Source of the DNA: an uncultured archaeon
GTDB taxonomy: Archaea; Asgardarchaeota; Lokiarchaeia; Sigyniarchaeales; SOKP01
Direction of reading: 5' to 3'
Assembly: GCA_964447495.1 (NCBI GenBank)
Contig: CAYUTF010000006.1
Span: 1,156-65,155 of the forward strand
Length of the DNA stretch: 64,000 nt
The notes under the pieces were generated by a model. It did not search any database and had not been told where the DNA came from. It saw only the letters and a program-made list of their open reading frames with translations. Shown here one piece after another: positions 40,236 to 59,806 of the stretch (positions are counted from its first letter, which is position 1; the number at the start of each line of letters is the position of its first letter). Position numbers and translations under genes: made by a program.

Positions 40236-41444
40236 TTAACCCATTTTTTGAATTAATTTGTCTACTATTTTTTCAAAATCTAATTCTTCTGGTTTTGGTA
40301 CAAATTTGATCTCTATTTTTTCATCCATAACATCTATTTTAGTCGCTTCTAATTCCTTAATTATCTCTTTAACTGCTCCACCGCCCCATCCATAGGAACC
40401 GAAAGCCATTCCTATTTTATTCATGGGTTTAAGCCCTTTCTGATAACTTAAATATTCAGCGACTAATGGATAAAGACCATTATTCAATGTTGGGCTTCCT
40501 ACTAGAATTGCTTTTGCTTTCATTGCCTCTGTTATAACATCAGAATAGTCTGCATTGGTCAATCGAAATCGTTTTACACGGATACCTCTATGAGTAAGTT
40601 CTTTATACAATGCTTTAGCAATTTTTTCGGTACTTCCCCACATTGTATCGTACACAATTATAACGCTTTTTTCATCGATCTCACCTGCTGACCATTTCTT
40701 ATATGCTTCAACAATCTTGCCAATATGAGTTCGCCAGCATATTCCATGAGAGGGGCATATTATCTCGATAGGTAGAGCCCCCACTTTTGGTAATGCTTTC
40801 GCTATTAACCCAGATAAGTGCAGTAGAATATTCGCATAATATTTCTCTGCCTCCCACATTATTTCAGAAAGATCATTTTCATCATCCCATCGTTTAGACG
40901 TAGCTAAATGTTGCCCAAAAGCATCATTTGAAAATAAAATATTTTTCCCATTCTTGTCTGTCATAAAAGATACCATCGAATCTGGCCAATGAATCATTGG
41001 AATTGGAACAAATGCAAATTGTTTACCATTTCCGATATCTAAAGTATCGCCTTCTTTAACGGTTCTAATCTTTTCAAAATTTTCTTTCTCGATTTCCTCA
41101 TGATATTGAAGTTCAAGAATTTCCTTTCCTCGAGTAGAGGCTATAACTTCTGCATTTGGTAAGTATTTCAAAATTAAGGGAAAGGAGCCTGAATGATCGG
41201 GTTCTACATGATTGACAATAAAATAGTCAATCTCTTTTGGATCACATACATGCTTGATATTATTTAAGAAATATTCAAAATAGGGGCGCTTTACAGCATC
41301 GATTAAGACCGTTTTATCCCCTGATTTCACAATATAGGCGTTATAAGAAGAGCCTTTATGCGTAGAATATCCATGGAAGTTTCGAACCTCGAAATCTACA
41401 TATCCCACATAAGATACATCTTTCATTAGTTCTAAATGTGTCAT
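40236..41444 (-). CDS. fprA: flavodiiron protein (FprA; metallo-beta-lactamase plus flavodoxin domains)
   Basis: HVEPDHSG is the diiron motif, and the C-terminal flavodoxin segment is IVYDTMWGSTEKIA. Confidence 0.9.
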   Translation of the reverse strand: MTHLELMKDVSYVGYVDFEVRNFHGYSTHKGSSYNAYIVKSGDKTVLIDAVKRPYFEYFLNNIKHVCDPKEIDYFIVNHVEPDHSGSFPLILKYLPNAEVIASTRGKEILELQYHEEIEKENFEKIRTVKEGDTLDIGNGKQFAFVPIPMIHWPDSMVSFMTDKNGKNILFSNDAFGQHLATSKRWDDENDLSEIMWEAEKYYANILLHLSGLIAKALPKVGALPIEIICPSHGICWRTHIGKIVEAYKKWSAGEIDEKSVIIVYDTMWGSTEKIAKALYKELTHRGIRVKRFRLTNADYSDVITEAMKAKAILVGSPTLNNGLYPLVAEYLSYQKGLKPMNKIGMAFGSYGWGGGAVKEIIKELEATKIDVMDEKIEIKFVPKPEELDFEKIVDKLIQKMG

Positions 41445-43040: not shown

Positions 43041-44405
43041 TTATTCTTTTAGTTTGAAATCTTTTTTAGTAGCACGGCACTTTGGATTAGGGCATTTAAA
43101 ATCTTCTGGTAAATCTTTAAATGTTACGTCCATTTTAGCCTCATCGTAGACAGCACCACAGTTGACGCATGCATATTCATGTATATTTAACAAGTTCTTT
43201 AATTCTTTCGTATTGACATCTTGCTCCATCTTACTATAAACATAGGATAATGCATTATTATCACCAAAGAGGATTGCTCCTTTAAGTTTATTATCTTTAA
43301 GAACGACTTTTTGATAACAGCAATCTTTTTTATCTGCGCGTTTTAAGATATCCCATCCGCCACCCTTTTCGCTACTAGGATCAAAGGTTCCGATTGAAGT
43401 TAGTTCTAATCCTACTATTTTTAGGGTATTTTTCGGAGTTGTGCCAGTATACTCTTTCATTTTCTTCTCAAGTACCGAAGCGGCTATGATTTTTGATTGC
43501 TCCATGCATGCAGGGATAATTCCCCACGTTTGATTTTTATATTCGATACAATCCCCAACAGCATAAATATCTTTTTCACTTGTTTCCAAGAATTCATTTA
43601 CGATAATCCCTCTATTAGTGGCAATACCTGCCTTTTGAGCTAATTCGATTTCAGGTTTGATTCCCGCTTGAATCAGGATAAGATCGGCAGTAAGGGTTCT
43701 CCCATCTTTTAATTTAATGCCCTCAACGCTTCCATTTCCCAATATTTCCTCTGTTGTTGCATTTAAGACAACTTCTATTCCACGATTTTCAATCTCTTCC
43801 TTTAACATAGTACTGCATTCGTCATCTAACTGTTTTGGTAGTAATCGAGGGAAAAATTCAACGATGGTTGTATCGAGATTTGATTTGTTAATTTGATTTG
43901 CTAATTCTAGACCTAATAATCCTCCACCAATTATTATCGCTTTCTTTTTTGAGTTGAATAGTTTGATATAATCCTTTATTTCCATAGCATCCTTTATGCT
44001 ACGGAGAGTAAAAAGCCCTTTATGGTTCATTTCTAGAGCATTTTTAATCGGAGGAATACTTGGATTACTTCCGGTGGCAATAATGAGCTTATTGTATGAT
44101 ATTGGATTAGGAGATTTCTCAGAATAGATCAATTTGTCTTTTGGGTTTATTTTTGTTATTTTTTCCCCAAGATGGAGCTTAATATTTTTAGTTTCATACC
44201 ATTTTTCTTTAAAGACAATTAAATCTGGGATTGTAACTTTATCGGAGATGAATTCTGGTAATTTAATCCGAGTATAGTAGGGATATTTTTCTTGAGTGAA
44301 TATGTCGATCTCCGCGCTATCATTGAGATTACGTATATTTTGAGCGCTAAAGGTTCCGGCAACATTATTACCGATTATTAATATCTTCATAGATTTTAAA
44401 CTCAT
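43041..44405 (-). CDS. NAD(P)H:rubredoxin oxidoreductase-like FAD flavoprotein with C-terminal rubredoxin-type domain
   Basis: It has two dinucleotide-binding motifs (ILIIGNNVAGTFSA; AIIIGGGLLGLELA) and GDC. The C-terminus is YACVNCGAVYDE...DLPEDFKCPNPKC (C-x2-C...C-x4-C). Confidence 0.8.
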   Translation of the reverse strand: MSLKSMKILIIGNNVAGTFSAQNIRNLNDSAEIDIFTQEKYPYYTRIKLPEFISDKVTIPDLIVFKEKWYETKNIKLHLGEKITKINPKDKLIYSEKSPNPISYNKLIIATGSNPSIPPIKNALEMNHKGLFTLRSIKDAMEIKDYIKLFNSKKKAIIIGGGLLGLELANQINKSNLDTTIVEFFPRLLPKQLDDECSTMLKEEIENRGIEVVLNATTEEILGNGSVEGIKLKDGRTLTADLILIQAGIKPEIELAQKAGIATNRGIIVNEFLETSEKDIYAVGDCIEYKNQTWGIIPACMEQSKIIAASVLEKKMKEYTGTTPKNTLKIVGLELTSIGTFDPSSEKGGGWDILKRADKKDCCYQKVVLKDNKLKGAILFGDNNALSYVYSKMEQDVNTKELKNLLNIHEYACVNCGAVYDEAKMDVTFKDLPEDFKCPNPKCRATKKDFKLKE

Positions 44406-44542: not shown

Positions 44543-44929
44543 ATGTTAGAAAAATTGAAGATTGATTTAATTGAAAAGATAATTGATACATTACCACTTG
44601 AGATGTCTTTTATTGATGCAGAGGACCGTGTTCAATATTATAGTAAAGGAAATAAAAGGATTTTTAAAAGATCTCCAGCTGTAATCGGTAAAAAAGTACA
44701 AAATTGTCATCCTCAGAAAAGTCTTGATAAAGTAAATGCAATATTAGAAGATTTTAAAAACAAGAAGCGAAATGTAGCGGAATTTTGGATTCCAGTAAAT
44801 GATATGTTTTTATATATCAGATATTTCCCTGTTGAAGATGAAAACGGAAAATACTTAGGAACATTAGAAGTGACTCAAGAGATAAGTAAGATTAAGACAA
44901 TAGAAGGAGAAAAAAGATTGCTTGATTGA
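44543..44929 (+). CDS. PAS-like domain protein of the type found C-terminal in DUF438/hemerythrin-associated proteins
   Basis: LPLEMSFIDAEDRVQYYSKG..IFKRSPAVIGKKVQNCHPQKS...ILEDFKNKKRNVAEFWI matches that conserved family pattern. Confidence 0.55.
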   Translation: MLEKLKIDLIEKIIDTLPLEMSFIDAEDRVQYYSKGNKRIFKRSPAVIGKKVQNCHPQKSLDKVNAILEDFKNKKRNVAEFWIPVNDMFLYIRYFPVEDENGKYLGTLEVTQEISKIKTIEGEKRLLD

Positions 44930-45760: not shown

Positions 45761-45971
45761 GAATAAAGTGGATTGAGTATTAGATGTTTTTTGTAAAAAT
45801 AATTACTTAATGACCGATTTCTCTATTCTATAGGAGAAATCCTTCAAAATTTAAATTATAAATATAAAATGTTTTCAAATTAATTAAAATTTCTCCTTTA
45901 GAATTAGTTAAATGAATCCTTAGAACATGTTCGAGATAGAAATTATTTTTTAGAAAATATTGTATCTATTT

Positions 45972-46721
45972 ATGACCGAAGCTCAAAGTAAAAGAGTAAA
46001 AAGAAAGATCATTGAAATTGATGATGAACTGTGTACTGGCTGTGGAAATTGTGTCGTCTCTTGTGCAGAAGGAGCTTTAAAAATAATTGATGGAAAAGCA
46101 CGCGTCATAAATGAAGTTTTTTGTGATGGATTAGGAGCCTGTATCGGAGAATGTCCTGAAGGAGCTCTAAAAATTATAGAAAGAGAAGCTTTAGAATTTA
46201 ATGAGGAGGAAGTCGAAAAATATTTGGAATCTATAAAACAAGAAACTATAAGCGAAGTTCATCAATGTGGTTGTCCTTCCGCTCAAACTATAGTATTTGA
46301 AGAAAATCTCGCTGAAGAGATGCCTTCTGGAGAGTCTTATTCAGCACTTAGGCAGTGGCCAATCCAGATGCATTTAATAAATCCTTCAGCACCCTATTTT
46401 AAAAATGCAGATGTGTTACTCACAGCAGATTGTGTTGCTTATGCACTCGGAGGATATCACAGCGAGTTTCTGAGAGGAAAATCTATAGCTATTGCATGTC
46501 CTAAACTTGACCAAGGAAGAGAACGATACATTGAGAAGATTAGAATGTGGATTGATGATGCAAAAATCAATACGCTTACAGTTATGATGATGGAAGTTCC
46601 ATGTTGTACGGGATTATTAGCTCTAGCAAAAGATGCTGCAAATCAGGCACGTCGAAAAGTTCCTATTAAATATATTATAGTTGGGATAAAAGGAGAGATA
46701 TTAAAAGAAGAATGGCTTTAA
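45972..46721 (+). CDS. 2x[4Fe-4S] ferredoxin-domain protein with conserved Cys-rich C-terminal domain
   Basis: CTGCGNCVVSC and CDGLGACIGECP are present, and the downstream domain has CGCP, ADCVAY, IACPKLD and VPCCTG. The track ORF begins at TTG 45960. Confidence 0.65.
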   Translation: MTEAQSKRVKRKIIEIDDELCTGCGNCVVSCAEGALKIIDGKARVINEVFCDGLGACIGECPEGALKIIEREALEFNEEEVEKYLESIKQETISEVHQCGCPSAQTIVFEENLAEEMPSGESYSALRQWPIQMHLINPSAPYFKNADVLLTADCVAYALGGYHSEFLRGKSIAIACPKLDQGRERYIEKIRMWIDDAKINTLTVMMMEVPCCTGLLALAKDAANQARRKVPIKYIIVGIKGEILKEEWL

Positions 46722-46741: not shown

Positions 46742-47395
46742 TTAATCATTTACGACTACTTTCTTTTTAATTATTTTTCTTAGCATTACAGATAATGCTG
46801 ATTTTGATTTACCTAAATGATTCGCTAATTCTTCTAAAGAAATTAACCGTGGAATTTCAAAAAATCCTTGTTCTATTGCCGCTTCTAAAACTTTAGATTC
46901 ATCTAATGTTAAGCGTTCTTTCTCTTCATCTAAAATGTAGGGAGAAGTACCGATTCTCAATAATTCATAATTGATTTTTCTTTGCTCAAAAATTGTTAAT
47001 AACTTATCTATATTCTCTCTACTAGAAATGAGCCGCCAGTAAGCAAATCCATTGCGGACATGAACAGGAAATTTAACAAGCACGCCACATTTAATTAAAG
47101 CATATAATAGATAAGGATCTTTAGTTTTTATGTTAAACCTTACTTTATTCTCTTCTTGCTTCAAAAGCGTAAAATCATGAACAGAGGGATGAGTTCTTAC
47201 AGAATTTATCACATCTTTAATATGATAATCTTGAATTTCAATAATGGAATTCCCGATAGATTTTTCTAAATCAAAGGGTAGAAAATACTCAATTTCCATC
47301 TTAATATTAGGAAATTTATCAAATATCTCAGAAATCCAAATTTGTTCTGGAAATTTTACTTTTATTCTTGCCAAACTTGCTTTCCGTGAGACCAT
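46742..47395 (-). CDS. HTH_10 (bacterio-opsin activator-type) transcriptional regulator
   Basis: The C-terminus is LTLDESKVLEAAIEQGFFEIPRLISLEELANHLGKSKSALSVMLRKIIKK. Confidence 0.65.
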   Translation of the reverse strand: MVSRKASLARIKVKFPEQIWISEIFDKFPNIKMEIEYFLPFDLEKSIGNSIIEIQDYHIKDVINSVRTHPSVHDFTLLKQEENKVRFNIKTKDPYLLYALIKCGVLVKFPVHVRNGFAYWRLISSRENIDKLLTIFEQRKINYELLRIGTSPYILDEEKERLTLDESKVLEAAIEQGFFEIPRLISLEELANHLGKSKSALSVMLRKIIKKKVVVND

Positions 47396-47480
47396 CTAAT
47401 TTAGTAGTGATAAGCAGTATAAATTTTTTTTCTGTAATTTAAATAATTAATAATATATAGCTCTAGAAATTTGTATTATT

Positions 47481-48080
47481 ATGGTCGAGAACAAAAATTT
47501 ATTATTAGGTATCTGTGGAAGTCCTAGGAAGCAAGGAACGGAATTTGCAGTGCAATATGCTCTAGATTATGCTCGTGAAAAATTCAATTTTGAGACTGAT
47601 TTTTGGACGGTAAGGGGGAAGAAAATCAATTTTTGTATACATTGCGATTATTGTGTTAATGAGAAAAAAGGATGTATTCATAAGGACGATATGCTTGAAC
47701 TATATCCTAAATTAGAGAATGCTAAATTTTTATTGTTTGGAACGCCGGTGTTCCAAGGGAATCTTTCGGGCCAATTGAAAACAATCATGGATCGGTGCAG
47801 AGCTTTAGTTGCAAAAAATCCGCAGGTATTTAAAGGAAAGTTTGCCGCTGCTCTTGCTGTAGGAGGCGACCGAAATGGAGGACAAGAAATTGCAATACGC
47901 ACAATTCTCGACTTTTATCAGCAAAATCACATATTTTCTATATCAGGAGGTGCATTTGGAGCAAATTTGGGCGCAAGTTTATGGAGTAAGGATATTGGTA
48001 AAGATGGTGTTGAGAATGATGAAGAAGGTTTAAGAGCGATAAGAAAAATAATAAAACGATTAGCAGAGCTTAAAAAATAA
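47481..48080 (+). CDS. iron-sulfur flavoprotein (Isf; NADPH-dependent FMN reductase fold)
   Basis: GICGSPRK is present, with the compact Cys motif CIHCDYCVNEKKGC (C-x2-C-x2-C-x6-C) and LAVGGDRNGGQE. Confidence 0.8.
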   Translation: MVENKNLLLGICGSPRKQGTEFAVQYALDYAREKFNFETDFWTVRGKKINFCIHCDYCVNEKKGCIHKDDMLELYPKLENAKFLLFGTPVFQGNLSGQLKTIMDRCRALVAKNPQVFKGKFAAALAVGGDRNGGQEIAIRTILDFYQQNHIFSISGGAFGANLGASLWSKDIGKDGVENDEEGLRAIRKIIKRLAELKK

Positions 48081-48107: not shown

Positions 48108-48431
48108 TTATTTTACACCAAAAATTTTCTTCGCTTCCTTTTCGCGGAGCCCGGAGATCCCCCACAATTCCTTGAACCAATACTTTCCTTTATACATTAC
48201 GACTGGTGTGTTGACAACACATCCATCCGCATCACAATAATTTTTTAAGAAATTCTCATCATGGAGTAATTGATGCACAAATTCCTCGTCATTAATATCT
48301 TTTTCAACAAATTTTACTTCGTGTTTGTCTAACCAAGTCTTTAACTCATGGCAGTGCGAGCAGCCTTCTTTTGTAATGAGTATTGGGAGATTAATTTCTG
48401 ACATAATATTATTATTAAGACTGTAAGACAT
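48108..48431 (-). CDS. glutaredoxin/NrdH-like thioredoxin-fold protein
   Basis: ILITKEGCSHCHELKTWLDKHEVKFVEKDIN is present, with a CxxC motif. Confidence 0.65.
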   Translation of the reverse strand: MSYSLNNNIMSEINLPILITKEGCSHCHELKTWLDKHEVKFVEKDINDEEFVHQLLHDENFLKNYCDADGCVVNTPVVMYKGKYWFKELWGISGLREKEAKKIFGVK

Positions 48432-48573: not shown

Positions 48574-49617
48574 TTAAATAAGTTGTTTTATTAACCACCG
48601 TAATGCATTAATTAATTTTTCGTCTTCGCTTAACACATTTATAGAAAAAAATTGTATGGGCATTCCGCATTTTTCTAATTCATTGATATCAAAGTTTTTA
48701 TATATGAAATCAGAACTTATTTCTTCCTTATCATGGAACTTGTTTCCAATAATCATGATGGGCATATATTCTCCTTTATCTAAACATCTATTTAAAACAA
48801 GCTGAAACATATCTATAGTATCATTTACACTGGTTTTATCTGTTGCGTTAAAGATTAAAATAAACGCTTCTGCATTATCCATGCAATAGTCATAAAATTT
48901 TTTCTGTGTTCCTTCATACTCATCATCAATACATTCATAAGTTAAAATCTCAATGTTGTCAATTATAAAATCATAGACTTTATTAACGAGATTCCTCTTT
49001 GCTTCATTCTCTTTATAGTGAAGAAATTGTATTACTTCTAAGTTTTTTAATAATGTTGTTTTGCCTGAATTCCTCGGTCCAAAGATATAGACTTTTTTCA
49101 AGTCTCCTTTACCTAAAATAGGTGCTGCAACGTTGATTTTTGGGCTAATATTCATGTAATATTTATTAAAAATATCTAAGAATTGCTTTTTGAAACGCTT
49201 TGATGCCATCTTTAAGGGATTTTTTTTAAGAGAACCCTCTTTTTGATTATGGATTAGTTTGGTTAACTCCTTATGTGTTTTTAATTCAGCAGCAAAATCT
49301 TCTAATTCTTTTGATTTTGATAATAAATAATTGTAAATATCCGTAATTTCGTCTTTATAATAGGCGGCACGGATCATATAGGTTATCATGAGTACCTCCT
49401 TCCCTCCACGGGCTATTTCTGATTCTATGTAAAAGATATGGTTAATCGTTTGATATTTTCGATAGGCAAAAATGAAGGTGCCTTCTTCCTCTTGAAATTC
49501 AAGAATTCTTCCTAAATCTGGATGTTCATTAGCAACCAGAGGAGTAGTGCAATAAAGGATATTAGGTCCTATGATACTATCGAAATAACTTAAACAAAGA
49601 ATAGATTCATTTGGCAT
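48574..49617 (-). CDS. divergent small-GTPase-like P-loop domain with ~160-aa N-terminal alpha/beta extension
   Basis: The G1 motif is GPRNSGKT. The G4-like motif is IIGNKFHD (NKxD with one extra residue). I found no clean DxxG. The N-terminal domain pattern resembles longin/roadblock-type folds. Confidence 0.5.
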   Translation of the reverse strand: MPNESILCLSYFDSIIGPNILYCTTPLVANEHPDLGRILEFQEEEGTFIFAYRKYQTINHIFYIESEIARGGKEVLMITYMIRAAYYKDEITDIYNYLLSKSKELEDFAAELKTHKELTKLIHNQKEGSLKKNPLKMASKRFKKQFLDIFNKYYMNISPKINVAAPILGKGDLKKVYIFGPRNSGKTTLLKNLEVIQFLHYKENEAKRNLVNKVYDFIIDNIEILTYECIDDEYEGTQKKFYDYCMDNAEAFILIFNATDKTSVNDTIDMFQLVLNRCLDKGEYMPIMIIGNKFHDKEEISSDFIYKNFDINELEKCGMPIQFFSINVLSEDEKLINALRWLIKQLI

Positions 49618-49833: not shown

Positions 49834-50283
49834 ATGGATTCTACTACTCAAAATGAAATCTTCAACAATGCAATTAAAAAATTATTTCATGGTGAAATTA
49901 TGGAAAGAGTTTCCGCAGCGAAACAACTTGGATCTATAAAAGATGGGAGAGCCACAAATCTTTTAGTAAAAGCATTAAATTCTGAAAAAGATGATATTGT
50001 TATTAATCGAATTATTGAAGCAATGGGTGATATAAAAGATCCTAAAGCCACATTATCGATAATTGATCTCTTAAAAGTTGAGGTTCAAAAGCCTGAGGAG
50101 GAGCAAGATAAGAGCAGAATATTCTTAATTATCGAGAGTCTGATGAAGATAGGGGATAAAAGAGCCTTGACACATCTGGGCATTTTATTAAATTCATGCT
50201 ATAGTGATATTCGAAAACTTACAGAAGAAGCATTTGAGTGTATTGATCCAAATTGGAAAGATAATATTAAAAAAACAATTTAA
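49834..50283 (+). CDS. HEAT/PBS-lyase-type repeat protein
   Basis: The repeat pattern is RVSAAKQLGSIKDGRATNLLVKALNSEKDDIVINRIIEAMGDIKDPKA. Confidence 0.6.
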   Translation: MDSTTQNEIFNNAIKKLFHGEIMERVSAAKQLGSIKDGRATNLLVKALNSEKDDIVINRIIEAMGDIKDPKATLSIIDLLKVEVQKPEEEQDKSRIFLIIESLMKIGDKRALTHLGILLNSCYSDIRKLTEEAFECIDPNWKDNIKKTI

Positions 50284-50318: not shown

Positions 50319-50645
50319 GTGAATAAAATGTTTCCAGAATTTATGAATGAATTATTTGAGGAAGTTGAGGGCAAAAAAAATAAACAAGACGTATCAATAT
50401 TCACATTATCTAGTTGTATGTGGTGCAAGAAATGCAAAGCATATCTTAAAGAGAAGAATGTTAAGTATAAATATATAGACGTTGATAATATTACTGTAGA
50501 CCAGAAGTCAAAGATATTAGAATATTTACGAGAAAATTACAAACCTGACAGAATTGCCTATCCTTTTTTAGTATGTGATGATAAATTTGTCGTGGGATAT
50601 GACCCAAACAAATATGAAGAATTAATTAAATCGGAGGAGAAATAA
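50319..50645 (+). CDS. glutaredoxin-like protein with CxxCxxC motif
   Basis: FTLSSCMWCKKCKAYLKEKNVKYKYIDVD is present. The GTG start follows AAGGAG. The stop is 1 nt before the FTR-like gene start. Confidence 0.6.
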   Translation: MNKMFPEFMNELFEEVEGKKNKQDVSIFTLSSCMWCKKCKAYLKEKNVKYKYIDVDNITVDQKSKILEYLRENYKPDRIAYPFLVCDDKFVVGYDPNKYEELIKSEEK

Positions 50646-50646
50646 A

Positions 50647-51024
50647 GTGGATTTGAAAACAAAAGAAGGTATGAAGAAGTATGTTGAACAAGTAAGTAAA
50701 AAGAATAACTGGATTCTGAATATGGATAGCAATACATTCAATGATTTGATTGATGGGTTAGTCGAGAATTTTCAGAAATATGGATATCAATCCTGTCCTT
50801 GCCGCTTAGCGTCAGGAAAGAGAGAGTTAGATAGAGATCTAATATGTCCCTGTGATTATGCTCCATTAGACGTGAAAGAACATGGAGCTTGTTATTGTAA
50901 TTTATATATGCGCGAGAACTTTTATGAGACAATTAAAAAAGATTACATCGTTGTTCCTGAACGTAGACCTATTGAAAAAGAAAAAGCCGTATTGGCTTAT
51001 TTTAATGAGCAAAATTCGCGCTAA
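50647..51024 (+). CDS. ferredoxin:thioredoxin reductase catalytic-subunit-like protein (FTRc family)
   Basis: CPC-x14-CPC-x12-CYC is present (SCPCRLASGKRELDRDLICPCDYAPLDVKEHGACYCNLY). Confidence 0.7.
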   Translation: MDLKTKEGMKKYVEQVSKKNNWILNMDSNTFNDLIDGLVENFQKYGYQSCPCRLASGKRELDRDLICPCDYAPLDVKEHGACYCNLYMRENFYETIKKDYIVVPERRPIEKEKAVLAYFNEQNSR

Positions 51025-51124
51025 AAGTATTAAAAAATCTCTTTTTTTATCTATATTAACAAACTTTTACTTTCAATTTTTTATAAATATAAGGCTTAAA
51101 TATTTCTTTTACACTATTAATAAT

Positions 51125-51280
51125 ATGCCAGATAAGGAAATTTCTGATGATGAGTTAGAAGACGAACTAGATAAAGCATTGAAAGCAAATGAAGCTAAAA
51201 AAGATCATTGCGGTACAGCACTCCCCACTAATAGAGAAGTAGGAATACAAAGAACCGATGTAAAAATTAAGAAGAAATAA
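51125..51280 (+). CDS. small hypothetical protein (51 aa, acidic N-terminus, basic C-terminus)
   Basis: The ATG lies about 25-35 nt downstream of the TTTATAAATATA TATA-like element. This is the distal part of track ORF 50882..51280, whose upstream part overlaps the FTR-like gene out of frame. Confidence 0.25.
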   Translation: MPDKEISDDELEDELDKALKANEAKKDHCGTALPTNREVGIQRTDVKIKKK

Positions 51281-51536
51281 TGATCTTTTTTTACTTTTAA
51301 TTTTTTTCATTCTATTATAGTAAATTTTGTAATAGGCCCTATTTCATTAAATTCTGATGGTTCCATTCTTAACTCTTCTACGGTTAATTTATTAAAAATA
51401 GAAGCAGCAAATATTTGTTAATATTAGATAAATAGTGGTTAAATATATAAAAAATATATTTATGAAATTTAGAAAATATAATTTTATTAAAACCAAAAAC
51501 ATGTTTTATTAGGTTATTTCAATTTCATTTTTATGA

Positions 51537-52529
51537 GTGGTTTATATGAAGGAACGATTTAAAGGTAGAAAAAATTATCCAACAGACGAAGTGGATTCTG
51601 AGAATTTTCTTAGTGATGATGAGGTAAAAAAATTAGCTAATAAAAAAGAGAAGTTTACTTTTCATCCTAATGATTATTATAAGCTCTATAATTGCGTTCA
51701 TTGCGGAGAGTGTGAATCTGAAGAAGAGAGATTTCTTTTAAAACAAAAATTTATCGAAGACGGGAACACGTTTGATGGTAAAGAAGAAATGGTGGAATAT
51801 TTTAAGAAATACCGGTCACCTTATCCAACCAATGAAATGCGTATAAGAAAGCCGAATAATATCCCAGAATCCTCAGATACACTATTTTTTATGGGATGTT
51901 TATCAACAATTCGTATCCCCAGATATACCGAACATGCGCTAAAATTTCTTCTTAAGGAAAATGTAAATTTTACAATTTTGAGTAAAGAAATATGCTGTGG
52001 ATGGCACTTATTAGCAAGTGGACTAAAAAATGAATTTGAAGTGTGTAAAAAAGAAAATATAGAAATCTTCCAAAAATATAAAAAAATCATTTGTCTTTGT
52101 CCCGCCTGTTATTATTTATTTAATGTAGTATATAGACCTGAACTAGATGAGCATATTAAAGTTGAATATATTGCTACTTATTTAAAACCAGCATCAGAAA
52201 TGAGAAAAGGGAGCGTAGCAGTTCAGCATCTCTGTCAACTTATGAATAGAGGGAAAGAAGGTGTAGATAGATTTGTCAATAACATTCTTGAAAAAAGTGG
52301 ATATAATGTTGTTGATGTCCCTCATTGGTGTTGCGGGGGAGGAACCGGATGGATGGGAAGAACGGATGTTATAGAGGCAATTGCTCGTAAAAGAATGACT
52401 GATTTTGATAATGCTCAAGTAGATTATGCTACAACCTATTGCCCATCATGCTGGTGGATTCTACAAAGATTCAGTAAGATTTGTAAAATTCAACCGCAAG
52501 CTAAGGATTTATTTGAACTACTTTTATAG
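51537..52529 (+). CDS. HdrB/HdrD-like protein with two CCG domains
   Basis: There are two C-x31-39-CC-x35-36-C-x2-C units (GC...EICCG...CPAC and LC...HWCCGG...CPSC). The N-terminal motif is CVHCGEC. Confidence 0.7.
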   Translation: MVYMKERFKGRKNYPTDEVDSENFLSDDEVKKLANKKEKFTFHPNDYYKLYNCVHCGECESEEERFLLKQKFIEDGNTFDGKEEMVEYFKKYRSPYPTNEMRIRKPNNIPESSDTLFFMGCLSTIRIPRYTEHALKFLLKENVNFTILSKEICCGWHLLASGLKNEFEVCKKENIEIFQKYKKIICLCPACYYLFNVVYRPELDEHIKVEYIATYLKPASEMRKGSVAVQHLCQLMNRGKEGVDRFVNNILEKSGYNVVDVPHWCCGGGTGWMGRTDVIEAIARKRMTDFDNAQVDYATTYCPSCWWILQRFSKICKIQPQAKDLFELLL

Positions 52530-52538
52530 GTTAGAGTA

Positions 52539-53537
52539 ATGAAAGAAGATTACAAATGTCCTTGTCGAGATACTGACCCAGAGCACTTTGTAACGAATGA
52601 AGAGGTCTATAAACTATTAGCTAATAAAAAAAAATTTAAATTTACTCAAGATGATTATTTTAAGCTCTATAATTGCATACATTGTAATGACTGCGGCACT
52701 GCTGAAGAGAGGTTTCTATTAAAAGAGAAATTTTTAAAAGATGGAAATAAAATTGAAGGATTAGATGAAGTTTTAAAAACATTTGAAAAATATAATAGTC
52801 CTTTTATCCAAAATAAGAGTCGAGTTAGACCCATTGAGGGTATATCTTTAGAAAGTACTACATTGCTATATTTAGGCTGTTTTACTACCGTTAAGACGCC
52901 TCGATATGGTGAAAATATAATAAAATACTTATTAAGAGAAAAGATTGATTTTTGTCTATTAGAAGAAGAAATTTGTTGTGGATATCCGATTCTCTGTACG
53001 GGGGAGATAAAAACCTATGAAAAATTTGTAAAAAAAAATCTTGAGTTATTTAAATCTAAAGGGTTTAAAAAAATTATAACAGCCTGTCCAAGTTGCTATA
53101 TGGTTTTCAAAAAACATTATAGTGAGCATGGAATTACGGTAGATTACTTTACAGATTATTTAAGACCCGCAAAACTTAAGAAAAAGGGAAATCTTATTAT
53201 ACAACATGCATGCCCATTGAAAAACGGTGAAATTCCGGGGATAGTAGATAATTTAGAAAGCTTATTTAAGAAAAGTGGGTATAATATATTGGATGCTGTT
53301 CCTAGAGATTGTTGTGGGTTTGGTGTTGGACATCAACTAAGAGTGGATATATCTGAAGCTATCGCAATGAAAAGGATGATAGACTTCAAAGAAGAAGGGG
53401 GTTATATAGAAAAAGTAAAAGATAATGAAAATTTTATTACATCCTACTGTCCAGATGCATATTGGGTATTAAAAGCGTATGGTAGAAAACAGAGAATCCC
53501 ATTTAAGGTTAAAGATATGTGTAATCTCTTAATGTGA
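52539..53537 (+). CDS. HdrB/HdrD-like protein with two CCG domains (tandem paralog)
   Basis: It has the same architecture: CIHCNDC, GC...EICCG...CPSC and AC...RDCCGFG...YCPDAY. Confidence 0.7.
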   Translation: MKEDYKCPCRDTDPEHFVTNEEVYKLLANKKKFKFTQDDYFKLYNCIHCNDCGTAEERFLLKEKFLKDGNKIEGLDEVLKTFEKYNSPFIQNKSRVRPIEGISLESTTLLYLGCFTTVKTPRYGENIIKYLLREKIDFCLLEEEICCGYPILCTGEIKTYEKFVKKNLELFKSKGFKKIITACPSCYMVFKKHYSEHGITVDYFTDYLRPAKLKKKGNLIIQHACPLKNGEIPGIVDNLESLFKKSGYNILDAVPRDCCGFGVGHQLRVDISEAIAMKRMIDFKEEGGYIEKVKDNENFITSYCPDAYWVLKAYGRKQRIPFKVKDMCNLLM

Positions 53538-53682
53538 TAGAAATATTATAGTTTTAAAATCGATTTTTTGAGATATTTATCTTAATATCAAGTTTTCGCT
53601 ATTATTTTTATAATTTAAACGAATAAATATTTTAAGATTAAATAGTAATATACATCTTAGCTTAAACAGTAATGGTGATTTT

Positions 53683-54375
53683 ATGCTATTTTCGGAAAAT
53701 GAATTAAATAATATTAAAAGAGAAATGAGTAAATTAAAAAATAAAGTTATTCTCAAATTATTTACTGATTTTAAAACTCAAGAAGATGGTTCTAAGTTAA
53801 GAAAATGTATGTCATGTGAAGGAACTTATGAATTATTGATATCTTTAGAGGAACTATCTAATGGAAAATTATTAATTGAAGAAGTATCAATAGAAGAAAA
53901 TGCTGATGAAGCAAAAAAGTATAGTGTTTCTAGAATTCCAGCAATTTTATTTGTTGATGACGACGGAAAAGAAATTCTACGTTATTCTGCCTATCCAACA
54001 GGATCTGAATTTGTACCGTTTCTTAATAGTATACAGTACTTTTCTGGTGTAAGACCCTTTTATGCGGATCAGATACTTTCTCATCTTAAAAAGATTGATC
54101 AGTCAAAGATGAAGATTTTTATAACTCCCACATGTCCATATTGTCCTGCAACCGTTCCAGTGTTAACTCTATTCGCCATTGTATCAAAAGGTAAGATTTC
54201 AGCGGAGGTTATAGATGTGAACTTAAATCCAGATATTGCAATGAAATATCAAGTTCAAGGAGTGCCCCATACGGTAATAAATGAAACAGAAAATATTTAT
54301 GGCATGTTTTCTCCTCAGGATTTACTGGATAAACTTACTAAGGGGGAGAGAGATTTTGGGGGAATGTATGCTTAA
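53683..54375 (+). CDS. protein disulfide oxidoreductase (PDO; two thioredoxin-fold units), paralog 1
   Basis: The N-unit has CMSC and the C-unit has CPYC, the length is ~230 aa, and RIPAILFVDDDGKE is present. Confidence 0.75.
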   Translation: MLFSENELNNIKREMSKLKNKVILKLFTDFKTQEDGSKLRKCMSCEGTYELLISLEELSNGKLLIEEVSIEENADEAKKYSVSRIPAILFVDDDGKEILRYSAYPTGSEFVPFLNSIQYFSGVRPFYADQILSHLKKIDQSKMKIFITPTCPYCPATVPVLTLFAIVSKGKISAEVIDVNLNPDIAMKYQVQGVPHTVINETENIYGMFSPQDLLDKLTKGERDFGGMYA

Positions 54376-54396
54376 TTTATTGAGGTGATTTAAACA

Positions 54397-55080
54397 ATGT
54401 CGCAAGATGATAAATATCGAGAGATAATTAAGAGAGAAATGGCTAAATTGACTAAGCCGGTGAAATTGAAAGTATTCACTTCTCTAAGCGCTAAACCAGA
54501 TGGAACTAAGATAAGAGCTTGCATGGATTGCGATCAGTTTATGTCTTTATTAAGAATTTATGAAGAAAATTCTAATGGATTGCTCACAATAAATGAGCTT
54601 TCCATTGAGGAAAATCCAGAATTTGCTAAAAGATATGACATTCAGAGAGTTCCAACAATATTATTTGTAGATGATAATGGGGATGAATTAATTAGATATT
54701 TAGCAGCCCCTCAAGGTGGAGAGATCCAACCGTTTATTCAAGCACTTTTTACTTTTGCAGGATCTCCCAATTATTATGAAGCAACAATAAAGCAAAATCT
54801 AAATAGAATTTCACCATCCACGATAAAAGTTATGATCACAAATTCTTGCCCATATTGCCCTCAAGTAGTCTCAATAAGCAATCAGTTTGCATTGGCTTCG
54901 AACGGAAAAATTAGAACTATAGTCATCGATATTATGGCAAATCCTGATATAGGACAATATTATGATGCCTCTGGTGTACCATATACTATTATTAATGATA
55001 AAAAAACTTTAGTTGGAATGGTAGGTCCGAATGAAATAATTCGAGAGCTTATTGGGGGCAATATCCGGGTACAGTATTGA
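54397..55080 (+). CDS. protein disulfide oxidoreductase (PDO), paralog 2
   Basis: The N-unit has CMDC and the C-unit has CPYC. GGTGAT lies 8 nt upstream of the ATG. Confidence 0.75.
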   Translation: MSQDDKYREIIKREMAKLTKPVKLKVFTSLSAKPDGTKIRACMDCDQFMSLLRIYEENSNGLLTINELSIEENPEFAKRYDIQRVPTILFVDDNGDELIRYLAAPQGGEIQPFIQALFTFAGSPNYYEATIKQNLNRISPSTIKVMITNSCPYCPQVVSISNQFALASNGKIRTIVIDIMANPDIGQYYDASGVPYTIINDKKTLVGMVGPNEIIRELIGGNIRVQY

Positions 55081-55113
55081 TTTAAGTAAATCTTTATTTT
55101 AAAAATAAAAAAA

Positions 55114-55773
55114 GTGAGCAAAATGCCAGCTTCATACATAATTAAGAAAATGTTAAAACAAGAATTAAATAAGCTTCTAAACCCTGTTAGGCTAATGTTA
55201 TTTTTTGATAATAATGATACAATAAAATCCCAAGGAGAAAAAGATAATTTATTAACACTTAAGATGTATGAAGAGTATTCTAATGGGAAGTTAATATTCG
55301 AAAAATACATTATCAATGAAAATAAAGAATTAGCAGAAAAATATCACATTGATAGAGTTCCAACTATTTTGTTTGTTGATGATAAAGGAAATGAACTAAT
55401 TCGCTATCTAGCGATACCAAAAGGTAGTGAAGTAAAACCATTTATTCAAACCATAGTAATACTTTCAGGAGTGAAGAATTATTATAAAGCCGCTATTAGA
55501 GGAATTATTGGAAAGATTGATTCTACTACTTTAAAGGTCATGGTGACAGATTCTTGTGCCTATTGTCCAGAATTAGTCATTATGGCTTCCCAATTTGCAC
55601 TGGCTTCGAAAGGAAAGATTAGAGCCGAAATAATAGATATTATGAAAAATCATGATATTGGTAATAAATATAATACTCAAAGTGTTCCTTATATTGTTAT
55701 AAACGATAGGAATCCTATAGTAGGTTTATATCACCCTAATGATTTATTGGAGGAAATTCTTAAAGAAAATTAA
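55114..55773 (+). CDS. protein disulfide oxidoreductase (PDO) paralog 3, N-terminal CxxC lost
   Basis: It is colinear with paralogs 1 and 2. The C-unit CAYC is retained, but the N-unit position reads KSQGEKDNLL with no Cys. Confidence 0.7.
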   Translation: MSKMPASYIIKKMLKQELNKLLNPVRLMLFFDNNDTIKSQGEKDNLLTLKMYEEYSNGKLIFEKYIINENKELAEKYHIDRVPTILFVDDKGNELIRYLAIPKGSEVKPFIQTIVILSGVKNYYKAAIRGIIGKIDSTTLKVMVTDSCAYCPELVIMASQFALASKGKIRAEIIDIMKNHDIGNKYNTQSVPYIVINDRNPIVGLYHPNDLLEEILKEN

Positions 55774-55823
55774 TTTAGATATATTATTAAGTGAAAATTA
55801 TATAAAAAAATCAAGAGAGAATT

Positions 55824-56768
55824 ATGTATAATATTAATATGGAAGAATTTGATGTAGAGAAAATATATGATCTTATTGTTTTAGGAGGAGGTCCTACGGC
55901 TATAGGATGTGCAATATATGCAAAACGATTCGCAATGGATGTGCTCATAATAGGCAAAACTTTTGGAGGATTAATTGCTACTACTCATATTGTAGAAAAT
56001 TATCCTGGAATTACTACAGTTAGTGGTCAGGGCTTAATGGATATGTTCAGAGATCATATGGATTCGCTAGAGATCCCGTACATTTCTGATGAAATAAGAA
56101 GCATTGAAAAAATAGATGACCATTTTGAATTGCTTTCTTTTTTCCAGAAATTTAAAGCCCATTCAATCGTCATCGCAACAGGATCAGTAAGGAAGAAGCT
56201 GGGGATACCTGGAGAAGATGAATTTGCAGGAAGGGGAGTATCTTATTGTGCAACTTGTGATGGTCCATTTTACAAGGATAAGATAGTTTGCGTAATAGGA
56301 GGGAGTGATTCGGCAGCAAAAGAGGCTCTCTTTTTAGCACAGAATGTTAAAAAAGTCTATATCATATATCGAGGTGAAGAATTAAGAGCTGAACCAATAA
56401 ATAAAAAAAGAGTAAAAGAAAATGAGAAAATTGAAATCATATATAAGAGAAATATCATAGAAATCATCGGAGAGGGAAATGTTAAATCTGTTATGTTTGA
56501 TAATGGAGAGATTCTACATGTCGATGGTGTGTTTATTGAAATAGGATCCGTTCCTAACTCTGAGATTGCTCAGCGAATTGGAGTAAATTTGAATGCAAAA
56601 AATGAGATTATAATAAATCGTAAATCCGAAACAAATATTCCTGGTATATTTGCTGCAGGAGATGTGGCGGATGCTCCTTTCAAGCAAGCAATAACAGGAG
56701 TGGCAGAAGGAGTAATGGCAGCATATTCCTCATTTGACTTTTTAAAAGAAATGAATATTGAATATTAA
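55824..56768 (+). CDS. trxB: thioredoxin reductase
   Basis: GGGPTAIG, the redox motif CATCDG, GGSDSAAKEA and GDV are present. Confidence 0.9.
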   Translation: MYNINMEEFDVEKIYDLIVLGGGPTAIGCAIYAKRFAMDVLIIGKTFGGLIATTHIVENYPGITTVSGQGLMDMFRDHMDSLEIPYISDEIRSIEKIDDHFELLSFFQKFKAHSIVIATGSVRKKLGIPGEDEFAGRGVSYCATCDGPFYKDKIVCVIGGSDSAAKEALFLAQNVKKVYIIYRGEELRAEPINKKRVKENEKIEIIYKRNIIEIIGEGNVKSVMFDNGEILHVDGVFIEIGSVPNSEIAQRIGVNLNAKNEIIINRKSETNIPGIFAAGDVADAPFKQAITGVAEGVMAAYSSFDFLKEMNIEY

Positions 56769-56916: not shown

Positions 56917-58230
56917 GTGTCTTGGCTAAGTGTTATTTTAACGCTTACTTTAACCATTACTTGTTATTATATTATTACTATTTTTTATTTAGAGGTTTTG
57001 AAAAAGAAAGGAAAATCTTTTTGGAAGAAATTAAAGCTAAATAAAAATCATCCAAGATTAAATACTGTACTGGGGCTTAGTTTATTAATTTTATTAGGGG
57101 GATCAATAGGATTATTCTGTTTTAATATAAGTAATCGAATTGCATATTTTAAATTTGGCATATCAGGTTCATCTGAGTGGGTCTATTCGAATGGTCAAAA
57201 ATATCTACACATCAACGCAGATAATAATTATGATTTAGGGTATCACACAGGGTACCAATTATCATCAGAAGTTTTCAAAATGAAATTTTTATTATCTGTT
57301 TCAGAAGCTTCCTTTGGTGTTTCCTATGCTCAATTTCTCGATTTATCAGAAAAATATCTTCCATTTATTCCTCAAAAATATATTGAGGAAATGCAAGGTT
57401 TAAGTGAAGGTGCTTCTGCGGGAAGTGGTTTTCCTATAAGCTTTTCTGATATTCTTATACAAAATGTTATTTTTGAGATTTTATATGGTCTTATCAATCC
57501 TCTTGATTTATCTGTGGAAAATACTTTAGGATGTACCACTTTTGGTTCAAAAAATCATGATGGAACAATAATTATAGGTCAAAATATGGATTTAGTAAAA
57601 CCTTTTTCATGGGTACAATCATTCGTATTGCATAAAGTAAATGATGATCCCTACGTTTTTTCTTATAGGCTAGGAGGGTGTTTAGCGATGCCTATGGGAA
57701 AAAATGAATATGGATTGACATTAATAACAAATTTAGTACAAACAAAAATAGTAGCACCAATAATGACACCAACATTTGTCTTGATAAGAGAAGGTTTAGA
57801 AAAAGAAAAGAGTGTAGATGACTTATATGATTCGCTATTTCCAAGTAATAAAAGTTCGTATAGTAGAAATTTTATAATTGCAAATCAAACTACTTTATTA
57901 TCAGTTCAATCTTTACCAGATAATCAAACAATTTGTCATCCTGAAACGATAGTTGTACAATCTAACACTTTTAACAATCTTTATTGGCAAAAATATCTGG
58001 TTGATGACCAATACTCAAAAGAGCGACAAATATACGCTGAAAGTTTAATAATCGATGCTTTTAATGATAATGAATTAACAAATCAAGAATTACTTTTAAT
58101 TTTAAAAGATACCCCAATCATTTGTAGAGACGAAGAAGGTCTCATTGGAATGAGTACGCTAGCATTTATGACTTCTAAATCCTTTGGGTTAGGAAATCCA
58201 AATGGTAAGATCGGAATTCTCCCATTTTAG
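56917..58230 (+). CDS. membrane-anchored peptidase C45 / acyl-CoA:6-APA acyltransferase-family Ntn hydrolase
   Basis: It has two N-terminal TM segments. The nucleophile context LGCTTFGSK..GQNMD is typical of C45/choloylglycine-type Ntn hydrolases. Confidence 0.6.
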   Translation: MSWLSVILTLTLTITCYYIITIFYLEVLKKKGKSFWKKLKLNKNHPRLNTVLGLSLLILLGGSIGLFCFNISNRIAYFKFGISGSSEWVYSNGQKYLHINADNNYDLGYHTGYQLSSEVFKMKFLLSVSEASFGVSYAQFLDLSEKYLPFIPQKYIEEMQGLSEGASAGSGFPISFSDILIQNVIFEILYGLINPLDLSVENTLGCTTFGSKNHDGTIIIGQNMDLVKPFSWVQSFVLHKVNDDPYVFSYRLGGCLAMPMGKNEYGLTLITNLVQTKIVAPIMTPTFVLIREGLEKEKSVDDLYDSLFPSNKSSYSRNFIIANQTTLLSVQSLPDNQTICHPETIVVQSNTFNNLYWQKYLVDDQYSKERQIYAESLIIDAFNDNELTNQELLLILKDTPIICRDEEGLIGMSTLAFMTSKSFGLGNPNGKIGILPF

Positions 58231-58274: not shown

Positions 58275-58583
58275 TTAATCAATTGGTACATCTACAGCAC
58301 CTTCCATATGATCCTTGAAAGGTACTTCAACTTTTAATATTCCATTTTTATACATGGCTTTCGATTTATCAGCAGATACGGGACAACATATGGCATATGA
58401 TCCCACATATACTGTATTTTCACTTTCCCCTTTCACAAAAAAAGAATCCTCATGCATTTTCAAAGCTATTGTATCTTTTTCTACACCGGGCATAGTTATT
58501 TCAATATGATAATTATCATGTTCATCATCTGCATAAGCACATATATCAGGGGATATTATATACTTTTCTTTCTCTTCAGATAT
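58275..58583 (-). CDS. Hsp20/alpha-crystallin-domain small heat shock protein
   Basis: HIEITMPGVEKDTIALKMHEDSFFVKGE...AMYKNGILKVEVP is present. The track start ATG 58493 falls inside the ACD (within ..EITMPGV..). The frame is open back to TGA 58592-58590, and ATA 58583 lies 6 nt after GGTGA (58594-58590). Confidence 0.7.
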   Translation of the reverse strand: MSEEKEKYIISPDICAYADDEHDNYHIEITMPGVEKDTIALKMHEDSFFVKGESENTVYVGSYAICCPVSADKSKAMYKNGILKVEVPFKDHMEGAVDVPID

Positions 58584-59563: not shown

Positions 59564-59806
59564 ATGATGAATACGATAAAAAAGCATAAGAATATTGCAA
59601 GTTATAAATTCCACCATATTGACACTGATAAATGTAAGAGATGCACTCAATTTTCTTGTGAAGAAGCATGTTTTAGAGGAATTTATAAAGTGATTAATAA
59701 AAATTCTGAACCACGATGCACAGTTGTTGAGAATCGAGAAGATCGATGCGTTAAATGTCATATTTGTACGACAGCATGTAAATTTGAAGCTATTACTATT
59801 GATTAA
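59564..59806 (+). CDS. small ferredoxin-like 4Fe-4S protein
   Basis: CKRCTQFSCEEAC and CVKCHICTTAC motifs are present. Confidence 0.6.
   Translation: MMNTIKKHKNIASYKFHHIDTDKCKRCTQFSCEEACFRGIYKVINKNSEPRCTVVENREDRCVKCHICTTACKFEAITID

Follow-up and report, generated by a model that had tools for sequence, protein, structure and literature searches.

Three separable disulfide-reducing modules probably share a conserved gene neighbourhood for thiol redox and oxidative stress in Lokiarchaeota-type Asgard archaea

Several described systems resemble parts of the archaeal locus considered here. PDO, a protein of two thioredoxin folds with a CxxC in each half, and a low-Mr thioredoxin reductase (TrxR) with a CATC site are a known pair in archaea such as Sulfolobus and Pyrococcus (PMC7278568), and the same system is represented in Aeropyrum. 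The Methanosarcina disulfide reductase FDR (PDB 4tpu) reduces specific redoxins, as related in the passage of PMC6262447 that cites Wei et al. (2015); its substrates are a thioredoxin of the MaTrx1/MmTrx5 type and the NrdH-like redoxin of the class III ribonucleotide reductase system of M. barkeri. Methanoredoxin, in turn, has coenzyme M as its reductant (PMC7278568). Proteins with two CCG domains and complete cysteine signatures include HdrB/HdrD, EtfD (PDB 9ojn), LutA, GlpC and TfrB. The stretch of DNA analyzed here (the window) comprises 64,000 nucleotides of contig CAYUTF010000006.1, from position 1,156 to 65,155, of an uncultured archaeon of the Lokiarchaeia (assembly GCA_964447495.1). 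It is AT-rich, with approximately 29% G+C, and nine consecutive genes on its plus strand, at positions 50319-56768, encode a glutaredoxin-like protein (GrxA), a homologue of the catalytic subunit of ferredoxin-thioredoxin reductase (FTRc, referred to as FDR), a protein of 51 amino acids (aa) called s52, two CCG-domain proteins (CCG1 and CCG2), three PDOs (PDO1, PDO2 and PDO3) and TrxR.

The families and the order of these nine genes had been put forward in an earlier note made from the sequence alone (the original prediction), and they were confirmed by profile searches with Pfam and NCBIfam, the nearest structures being taken from PDB matches. Three disulfide-reductase chemistries, based on a flavin, an FTR-type cluster and CCG clusters, are indeed located together at this site, but the conserved block extends upstream past its proposed start to at least position 45960, and it is not a single operon. 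The locus is probably, with a likelihood of about 60%, a gene neighbourhood for thiol redox and oxidative stress that is conserved in Lokiarchaeota-type Asgard archaea and in which three evolutionarily separable modules work in parallel and do not constitute one relay; the genes present, their motifs, the conservation of their linkage and the boundaries of the units were observed, and each electron-transfer step described below is inferred. The pairings of glutaredoxin with FDR and of PDO with TrxR are already known. The new parts are a compact, lineage-specific CCG family of the HdrD/EtfD-like kind, the s52 protein and a conserved variant of the NAD(P)H motif of TrxR. A cluster in which these three are co-located with both known pairs appears to be undescribed in the literature searched, and no paper found in that search describes the cluster in Asgard archaea.

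Conservation of the clustering in relatives, which the original prediction had named as a test, was examined by scanning one genome per species, which gave 80 Asgard loci (designated by L numbers), all of them picked for having CCG1. The window proteins were mapped onto these loci, and counts of genes near CCG1 are restricted to loci with sufficient flanking sequence; as a control for inherited gene order, every window gene within reach was scored for retention beside CCG1. The recurrent order consists of an HTH_10 gene on the minus strand, an FMN_red gene on the plus strand, a Grx gene on the minus strand, optionally a GTPase gene (minus strand) and a HEAT gene (plus strand), then GrxA, FTRc and s52, an optional insert, CCG1, optionally CCG2, a second optional insert, PDO1, PDO2, optionally PDO3, and finally TrxR. 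FTRc is found near CCG1 in 58 of 61 loci, GrxA in 57 of 60, s52 in 70 of 77, PDO1 in 53 of 62 and TrxR in 45 of 54. The clustering thus recurs in the species-level genomes, with the redox genes kept beside CCG1 in 74-95% of the assessable loci, whereas the interspersed non-redox genes are kept in 0-38% (GTPase 38%, C45 4%, PAS_10 3%, eRF1-like and metallo-beta-lactamase genes 0%); therefore, the linkage goes beyond chance and background synteny. Some of the non-redox flanks are fairly well kept, namely HSP20 (61%) and the AsnC-type regulators (45-57%), and a small ferredoxin gene is kept in 53%.

Nearly all of the 80 loci are labelled Promethearchaeota, which is the present NCBI phylum name of the former Lokiarchaeota; the G+C content is 25-35% in all of them, and CCG1 is 58-78% identical among the genomes, each of which is a distinct species. 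Some metagenome-assembled genomes (MAGs) bear Thor-, Odin-, Hod- or Hermodarchaeota labels, and a cluster spanning several Asgard phyla was considered and rejected as unverified. These differently labelled MAGs (L012, L021, L027, L032, L041, L048, L052 and others) have 28-32% G+C and 65-72% CCG1 identity, and their phylum labels look doubtful because G+C content, CCG1 identity and gene order all equal those of the Promethearchaeota-labelled loci.

The simplest reading of the gene arrangement is that the block is divided into at least three units, [HEAT]-GrxA-FDR(-s52), CCG1(-CCG2) and PDO1-PDO2(-PDO3)-TrxR, because of T-tracts, a promoter block private to PDO1, variable inserts and modules that were lost independently. 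T-tracts are located downstream of FTRc, s52 and CCG2, and TATA-like boxes upstream of s52, CCG1 and PDO1. The PDO1-specific conserved promoter or leader block (53558..53687, plus strand) was delimited by an alignment of 62 upstream regions, in which approximately 75 nucleotides (nt) upstream of PDO1 are strongly conserved in relatives. An nhmmer profile of this block gave 63 matches, all upstream of PDO1. Four further matches fell on the PDO1 site of the window itself, on two contig ends that would truncate PDO1 and on a relic in L040. In that locus (12035-12143), the PDO1 promoter block survives though the PDO-TrxR genes are gone, as a footprint of module loss. The upstream region of CCG1 is poorly conserved among relatives.

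The spacers between the units have been reshaped by insertion and deletion. In about 22-26 relatives, a 2.5-kb insert of two unrelated minus-strand genes, encoding a membrane protein of 350 aa and a protein of 368 aa, lies between s52 and CCG1. A relic of the 3' end of the gene for the 350-aa membrane protein was found by tblastn in the window (51310..51414, minus strand, 105 nt), where 35 aa align at 63% identity with residues 316-350 of the protein in L009, and the window lineage has deleted this gene pair. The inserts in the spacer between the CCG genes and PDO1 differ among relatives and include genes for a histidine kinase, an MFS_MOT1 transporter, DJ-1/PfpI, an Arf-like GTPase and a GNAT acetyltransferase. 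In most relatives, the third unit has a 10-nt overlap between PDO2 and TrxR. L040, L070 and L080 keep Grx-FDR-s52-CCG with no PDO-TrxR nearby, L079 is among the few loci with CCG but without Grx-FDR, and the presence of CCG2 and that of a third PDO are uncorrelated across loci. The Grx-FDR unit probably starts with a gene for a HEAT/PBS-lyase-repeat protein (49834..50283, plus strand; PF13646 and PF03130), which lies 36 nt ahead of GrxA; it is retained in 38 of 51 loci, and its distance from GrxA is 30-100 nt in relatives.

GrxA (50319..50645, plus strand) is a glutaredoxin-like redoxin that contains CMWCKKC and matches PF00462 with an E-value of 6.5e-11 and 42.7 bits (cut-off 22.9), and its motif TLSTCMWCKKCK is kept across 68 sequences. 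The best PDB matches are 5cax and 3nzn, both glutaredoxin-like proteins of Methanosarcina, and the N-terminal domain of 7pwe; the CMWC of GrxA aligns with the CVWC of 5cax and 3nzn, which corresponds to a glutaredoxin fold with an N-terminal CxxC. The active-site context LSTC(V/M)WCKK is common to GrxA and to methanoredoxin and 5cax/3nzn, and GrxA carries a third cysteine (CMWCKKC), unlike 5cax and 3nzn. In the NCBIfam searches, GrxA falls below every named equivalog (YruB, NrdH and Grx3), and its top match is TIGR02196 with 50.9 bits against a cut-off of 88.55.

The FTRc-like FDR (50647..51024, plus strand; 125 aa) matches PF02943 with 72.1 bits (cut-off 22) and has the arrangement CPC...CPC...CYC. 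Its cysteine set, SCPCRLASG...ICPCDYAP...GACYCNLY, aligns column for column with those of 7pwe and 4tpu, is kept in 70 orthologues and fits the CPC-X16-CPC-Xn-C(H/Y)C pattern of a [4Fe-4S] cluster with a redox-active disulfide. The PDB matches have E-values of 7e-25 for 7pwe and 4e-23 for 4tpu, against 9e-7 to 1e-5 for FTRc of plants and cyanobacteria; by sequence similarity, the homologue in the window is placed in the archaeal/bacterial FDR branch and not with plastid/cyanobacterial FTRc. FTRc is the sole domain of the protein, which has no rubredoxin domain, and an FTRv-like gene was not found in the locus. The stop codon of GrxA and the start of FDR are 1 nt apart, as had been predicted, and the 3' end of GrxA contains a Shine-Dalgarno sequence, GGAGGAG; translation of the two genes is coupled.

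Among solved structures, the one nearest to FDR is 7pwe, a chain of 196 aa entitled 'ferredoxin-thioredoxin reductase subunit B', and no paper describing this structure turned up in the literature search. Residues 6-79 of the chain match GrxA and residues 93-191 match the FTRc homologue of the window, so that, as judged by alignment, 7pwe is a natural fusion of both proteins; the two components are shared, in one fused chain in 7pwe and in two translationally coupled genes in the window. Because 7pwe fuses both, which constitutes Rosetta-stone evidence, GrxA is predicted to be a substrate or partner of FDR. Methanosarcina FDR (4tpu) resembles the window FDR in its CPC...CPC...CYC arrangement, in which a tyrosine replaces the histidine of the plant protein, and in having a small dedicated redoxin as its partner. 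It differs in that 4tpu has 173 aa and a C-terminal rubredoxin domain, which the 125-aa protein lacks, in that the partner in the window would be a CxWC glutaredoxin-like protein encoded directly upstream, and in that the gene is not beside a ribonucleotide reductase, s52 and CCG1 being the next genes downstream. If this first module works as Methanosarcina FDR does, reduced ferredoxin would deliver single electrons to the active-site [4Fe-4S] cluster and disulfide of FDR, which would then reduce GrxA as its dedicated redoxin, and GrxA would reduce target disulfides.

The acidic protein s52 (51125..51280, plus strand; 51 aa) has 91 homologues, each at least 70% identical, all from Asgard archaea, nearly all 51-53 aa in length and none with a name, and one cysteine is invariant in the motif D[HNQ]CG. 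The recurrence of these homologues indicates that s52 is a genuine gene. It matched no Pfam or NCBIfam family, and an AlphaFold2 model contains a single helix (residues 8-23) with low confidence elsewhere. The gene has its own TATA-like box and T-tracts on both flanks. As a component of the first module, s52 may be a lineage-specific accessory subunit or a target of FDR.

The third unit encodes PDO1 (53683..54375, plus strand; TIGR02187, E-value 2e-47; CMSC/CPYC), PDO2 (54397..55080, plus strand; TIGR02187, E-value 1e-42; CMDC/CPYC), PDO3 (55114..55773, plus strand; TIGR02187, E-value 3e-45) and TrxR. TIGR02187 spans almost the full length of all three PDOs, which corresponds to two thioredoxin folds and the type of approximately 225 aa, and their scores of 146-161 bits are under the NCBIfam equivalog cut-off of 185. 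The first PDB match of PDO1 is the Pyrococcus furiosus PDO 1a8l, followed by 2ywm, 1j08 and 2hls. A CxxC is present in both halves of PDO1 and PDO2, as in the Pyrococcus, Sulfolobus and Aeropyrum proteins, and CMDC/CPYC was found in 57 of 61 PDO2 orthologues. PDO3 is a single-site paralogue in which the N-terminal CxxC is absent and only the C-terminal half has one (CAYC); a third PDO occurs in about 22 loci, where nearly all copies are without the N-terminal CxxC and most have the C-terminal CAYC. Asgard loci contain two to three PDO paralogues, the third single-site, unlike the known system, and they share with it the adjacency or overlap of PDO and TrxR genes.

TrxR (55824..56768, plus strand) is a low-Mr thioredoxin reductase that matches TIGR01292 with 312 bits, under the NCBIfam equivalog cut-off of 343.45. 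It has an FAD-binding GGGPTA and the redox-active CATC of the known archaeal enzymes, and it aligns over its full length with its best PDB match, S. solfataricus TrxB3 (SsTrxB3; 3f8p). In NADPH-dependent enzymes, GxGxxA/G binds the pyrophosphate of NADPH and HRRxxxR its 2'-phosphate (PMC8564101; PMC6262447). This signature is altered in the window protein, which has GGSDSA and YRGEELR (YRGxxxR) where SsTrxB3 has GGGDSA and HRRDTFK; the variant retains two of the basic residues and is kept in 54 sequences. NAD(P)H may be used by TrxR, but because the variant motif is conserved and the profile score is below the cut-off, NADPH cannot be assumed as its hydride donor. The original prediction held correctly that PDO and TrxR are a known archaeal disulfide-reducing pair, and its TrxR is present with an intact CATC, while its choice of NADPH as the input has become uncertain. 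In this module, as in Sulfolobus and Pyrococcus, TrxR would reduce the PDOs by means of FAD and CATC, and the PDOs would reduce disulfides of peroxiredoxin-type and other proteins (PMC7278568).

The remaining unit encodes CCG1 (51546..52529, plus strand), a soluble HdrD/EtfD-like Fe-S protein with two PF02754 domains and an N-terminal CxxCxxC, and CCG2 (52539..53537, plus strand), a paralogue with 43% identity and two PF02754 domains. Public gene calls start CCG1 at the ATG of position 51546, and a version that begins at the GTG of position 51537 is not on record. An exact look-up of the TrxR sequence likewise gave no record, and that of CCG1 with the ATG start gave only contigs of at most 3 kb belonging to this organism. 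CCG1 has the two-domain, five-cysteine signature C-Xn-CCG-Xn-CxxC of HdrB/HdrD (C118, C150, C151, C185 and C188 in the first domain; C230, C262, C263, C299 and C302 in the second), and the cysteines of both domains are invariant or nearly so in an alignment of 23 sequences; in a larger set of 84 orthologues, the CPAC and CPSC/CVSC motifs are maintained. The N-terminus contains a single invariant CxxCxxC (C50, C53 and C56) without a fourth cysteine. CCG1 consequently differs from HdrD-type proteins, which have two full ferredoxin motifs, in that the pair of CxxCxxCxxxCP motifs is absent, and an HdrC-like gene was not found in the locus. CCG2 is an optional partner, present in 38 of 74 loci, and has lost two cluster-ligand cysteines, with TACPSC for CLCPAC and CPDA for CPSC; CPDA was seen in 22 CCG2 orthologues.

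More than 120 homologues of CCG1 at the cluster level are 64-78% identical, and all are labelled as Asgard save one MAG labelled 'bacterium'. When clustered at 50% identity, the family consists of one cluster and the CCG2 paralogue, and the next relatives are approximately 30% identical; within the CCG superfamily, it is therefore a compact branch specific to this lineage. CCG1 is not at the level of the HdrB equivalog, with 31 bits for TIGR03288 against a cut-off of 345 and an E-value of 3e-7 for HdrB in the PDB. CCG1 is predicted from its motifs to be an Fe-S disulfide reductase. In the second module, the two CCG domains of CCG1, which would optionally act with CCG2, are predicted to bind non-cubane [4Fe-4S] clusters; electrons would enter through the cluster of the N-terminal CxxCxxC, and CCG1 would reduce a disulfide that is either of low molecular weight, perhaps serving the methanoredoxin-like GrxA, or borne by a protein.

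It is also conceivable, though unlikely, that CCG1 and CCG2 are not disulfide reductases but an electron-transferring or substrate-oxidizing Fe-S protein of the GlpC/LutA/EtfD/SdhE kind, which would be in the island through shared regulation or use of ferredoxin, leaving FDR-Grx and TrxR-PDO as the only thiol systems. The AlphaFold2 model of CCG1 (predicted local distance difference test score 83) matches the folds of EtfD, LutA and HdrB, and in the Foldseek ranking Mycobacterium smegmatis EtfD (9ojn; TM-score 0.66) and LutA come first and HdrB third; the NCBIfam matches are scattered over TfrB, LdhH, GlpC, GlcF and HdrB, all far under their cut-offs. Unlike the Hdr and EtfD systems, moreover, CCG1 is soluble and without an HdrA, HdrC, HdrE or ETF partner, and profile searches of the locus genes found no HdrA, HdrC or HdrE. 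The nearest CCG relatives outside the family (L089 and L090) have Fer4_5 membrane ferredoxin domains as fusion partners, and further thiol-disulfide genes are absent from their surroundings, though one is accompanied by an HdrA/B/C-like gene set; hence they provide no support for the CCG linkage from an independent lineage. On the other hand, both domains of CCG1 keep the full five-cysteine signature that HdrB uses for disulfide chemistry, no gene is linked more tightly than CCG1 to Grx-FDR-s52 (93-95%) and PDO-TrxR (85-88%), and no dehydrogenase partner of the LutB/LutC, GlpA/GlpB, GlcD/GlcE or ETF type is nearby. Both the intact CCG signatures and this close association with thiol genes speak for a soluble disulfide reductase of the HdrD kind.

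A bolder and similarly improbable view is that the thiol system of Lokiarchaeota-type Asgard archaea draws mostly on ferredoxin and makes little or no use of pyridine nucleotides. CCG1, with or without CCG2, would then be a new soluble, HdrD-like Fe-S disulfide reductase that regenerates either a low-molecular-weight thiol serving GrxA or a carrier protein (s52, a Grx or a PDO), beside FDR and a TrxR whose altered NAD(P)H site would point to a donor other than NADPH, and the three chemistries would be functionally coupled within one conserved island.

The original prediction had gone further and suggested a multi-input relay, in which NADPH, ferredoxin and possibly another donor feed into PDO-type carriers. 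In such an integrated relay, TrxR (pyridine nucleotide), FDR (ferredoxin) and CCG1/CCG2 (another low-potential donor) would supply the same PDO-type or Grx-type carriers, and the PDO paralogues would gather reducing power from several pools. In most of the 80 genomes, all three types of reductase and five redoxins are confined to some 10-15 kb, which would fit such a scheme, as would the number of carriers (PDO1-3, GrxA and GrxM, a second glutaredoxin-like protein encoded upstream), which exceeds the needs of one-to-one pairs, and the lack of an obvious dedicated substrate gene for CCG1. DsrK acting on DsrC also offers a precedent for a CCG protein that works on a protein-bound disulfide or trisulfide. 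Convergence of all inputs on the PDOs is nevertheless unsupported and appears doubtful, as FDR already has a translationally coupled Grx partner that is fused to it in 7pwe, and the PDOs are coupled to TrxR and have a private promoter. Most relatives have unrelated inserts between the modules; PDO-TrxR has been lost from the neighbourhood of the three loci that retain Grx-FDR-CCG, CCG2 does not co-vary with the third PDO, and CCG proteins, as the EtfD and LutA fold matches illustrate, are not always disulfide reductases. That the clustering is mere inherited gene order among close genomes, with no function beyond the two known pairs, is highly improbable, for although every locus comes from one low-G+C Asgard lineage and HSP20, the AsnC-type regulators and the small ferredoxin are also kept, the non-redox genes between the redox genes turn over fast, repeated insertions and deletions in the spacers have not dispersed the modules, and the 80 species are only 58-78% identical in CCG1.

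Several points weigh against the preferred reading of three parallel modules. CCG1 could act on a non-disulfide substrate, given that the modelled fold ranks EtfD and LutA ahead of HdrB. Its very tight linkage to Grx-FDR-s52 could mean functional coupling and not parallel work, and there could be cross-talk between modules, for example reduction of a PDO by FDR or CCG1. A shared operator or promoter that would tie the modules into one regulon was not found when the profile of the PDO1 block was searched over the loci. Furthermore, as the 80 loci belong to a single low-G+C lineage and were selected by CCG1, the counts are phylogenetically non-independent and conditional on CCG1.

The upstream part of the conserved block includes a gene for a dicluster 4Fe-4S ferredoxin-like protein of 253 aa (45960..46721, plus strand), which matches Pfam Fer4 families, has a homologue in relatives that carries PF27217 (AF_0155) and is retained in 29 of 39 loci; it is a candidate for the low-potential electron carrier of the island. 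The next gene, on the minus strand (46742..47395), encodes an HTH_10 transcription regulator (PF04967, E-value 2.3e-12), a candidate local regulator found near CCG1 in 34 of 41 loci (35 of 42 in the retention control). It is divergent from the gene for an FMN_red flavoprotein (47481..48080, plus strand; PF03358, E-value 5e-29), which has a compact four-cysteine motif (CIHCDYCVNEKKGC) and is retained in 38 of 44 loci with a median identity of 79%; this protein resembles an iron-sulfur flavoprotein. The divergent intergenic region (47396-47480, approximately 87 nt) varies very little in length or sequence among 44 genomes. Within it are tandem ATTAAT palindromes, for which an operator function is possible, and its conserved elements resemble ordinary TATA/BRE sequences in very AT-rich DNA. 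GrxM (48108..48431, minus strand; PF00462, E-value 3e-7; CSHC) follows and is retained in 39 of 44 loci. An Arf/Roc-like small GTPase of 347 aa and of the eukaryote-signature type is encoded within the redox block at 48574-49617 (minus strand), with approximately 38% retention, and a second Arf-like GTPase gene lies between CCG2 and PDO1 in L008.

Further upstream, the window encodes a flavodiiron protein (40236-41444, minus strand), a rubredoxin reductase with a fused C-terminal rubredoxin (43041-44405, minus strand) and a stand-alone PAS_10 protein (44543-44929, plus strand), and these genes extend the island towards O2/NO detoxification. Relatives additionally carry rubredoxins and a hybrid-cluster protein. 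With its flavodiiron, rubredoxin and hybrid-cluster neighbours, the block is thus the thiol core of a larger oxygen/oxidant-stress island, and because the modules sit together with HTH_10, the FMN reductase, the second glutaredoxin, ferredoxin-like proteins and the nearby flavodiiron protein and rubredoxin fusion, selection appears to keep the genes as a stress island. An HSP20 gene and a small ferredoxin gene lie downstream, with a Fer4 protein encoded at 59564-59806. The HSP20-like open reading frame (58275-58493, minus strand) has 72 aa against 102 aa in L006 and L008, and is possibly shortened or has a mis-called start. A gene for a C45-family autoproteolytic acyltransferase/hydrolase with an N-terminal hydrophobic segment (56917-58230, plus strand) is inserted between TrxR and HSP20, a position at which it occurs in 2 of 50 relatives.

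The best NCBIfam matches of the locus include families centred on selenoproteins, namely an FtrB double-selenoprotein, a Uxx-star Grx-like family, PDO_seleno_TRX and 'diclust_near_Sec', the last of which joins a pyridine nucleotide-disulfide oxidoreductase to CCG-type domains in one protein. These matches suggest that an analogous association of FtrB, Grx and CCG proteins exists in selenocysteine-using bacteria. Selenocysteine versions of the present proteins were not found, as no in-frame stop codon is aligned to a cysteine position in the window or in any orthologue.

Lokiarchaeota are strict anaerobes near the archaeal ancestor of eukaryotes, and their handling of oxygen and reduction of thiols bear on models of eukaryogenesis and on laboratory cultivation. 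The block provides a concrete, conserved set of candidate genes for these functions, comprising FDR-Grx, TrxR-PDO, the CCG1/CCG2 family, s52 and a TrxR with a variant site. It also calls for caution before such CCG genes are interpreted, in metabolic reconstructions of Asgard archaea, as 'HdrD' genes of energy metabolism. If CCG1 is truly a soluble, ferredoxin-dependent disulfide reductase, Hdr-type chemistry would extend to general thiol homeostasis outside methanogens.

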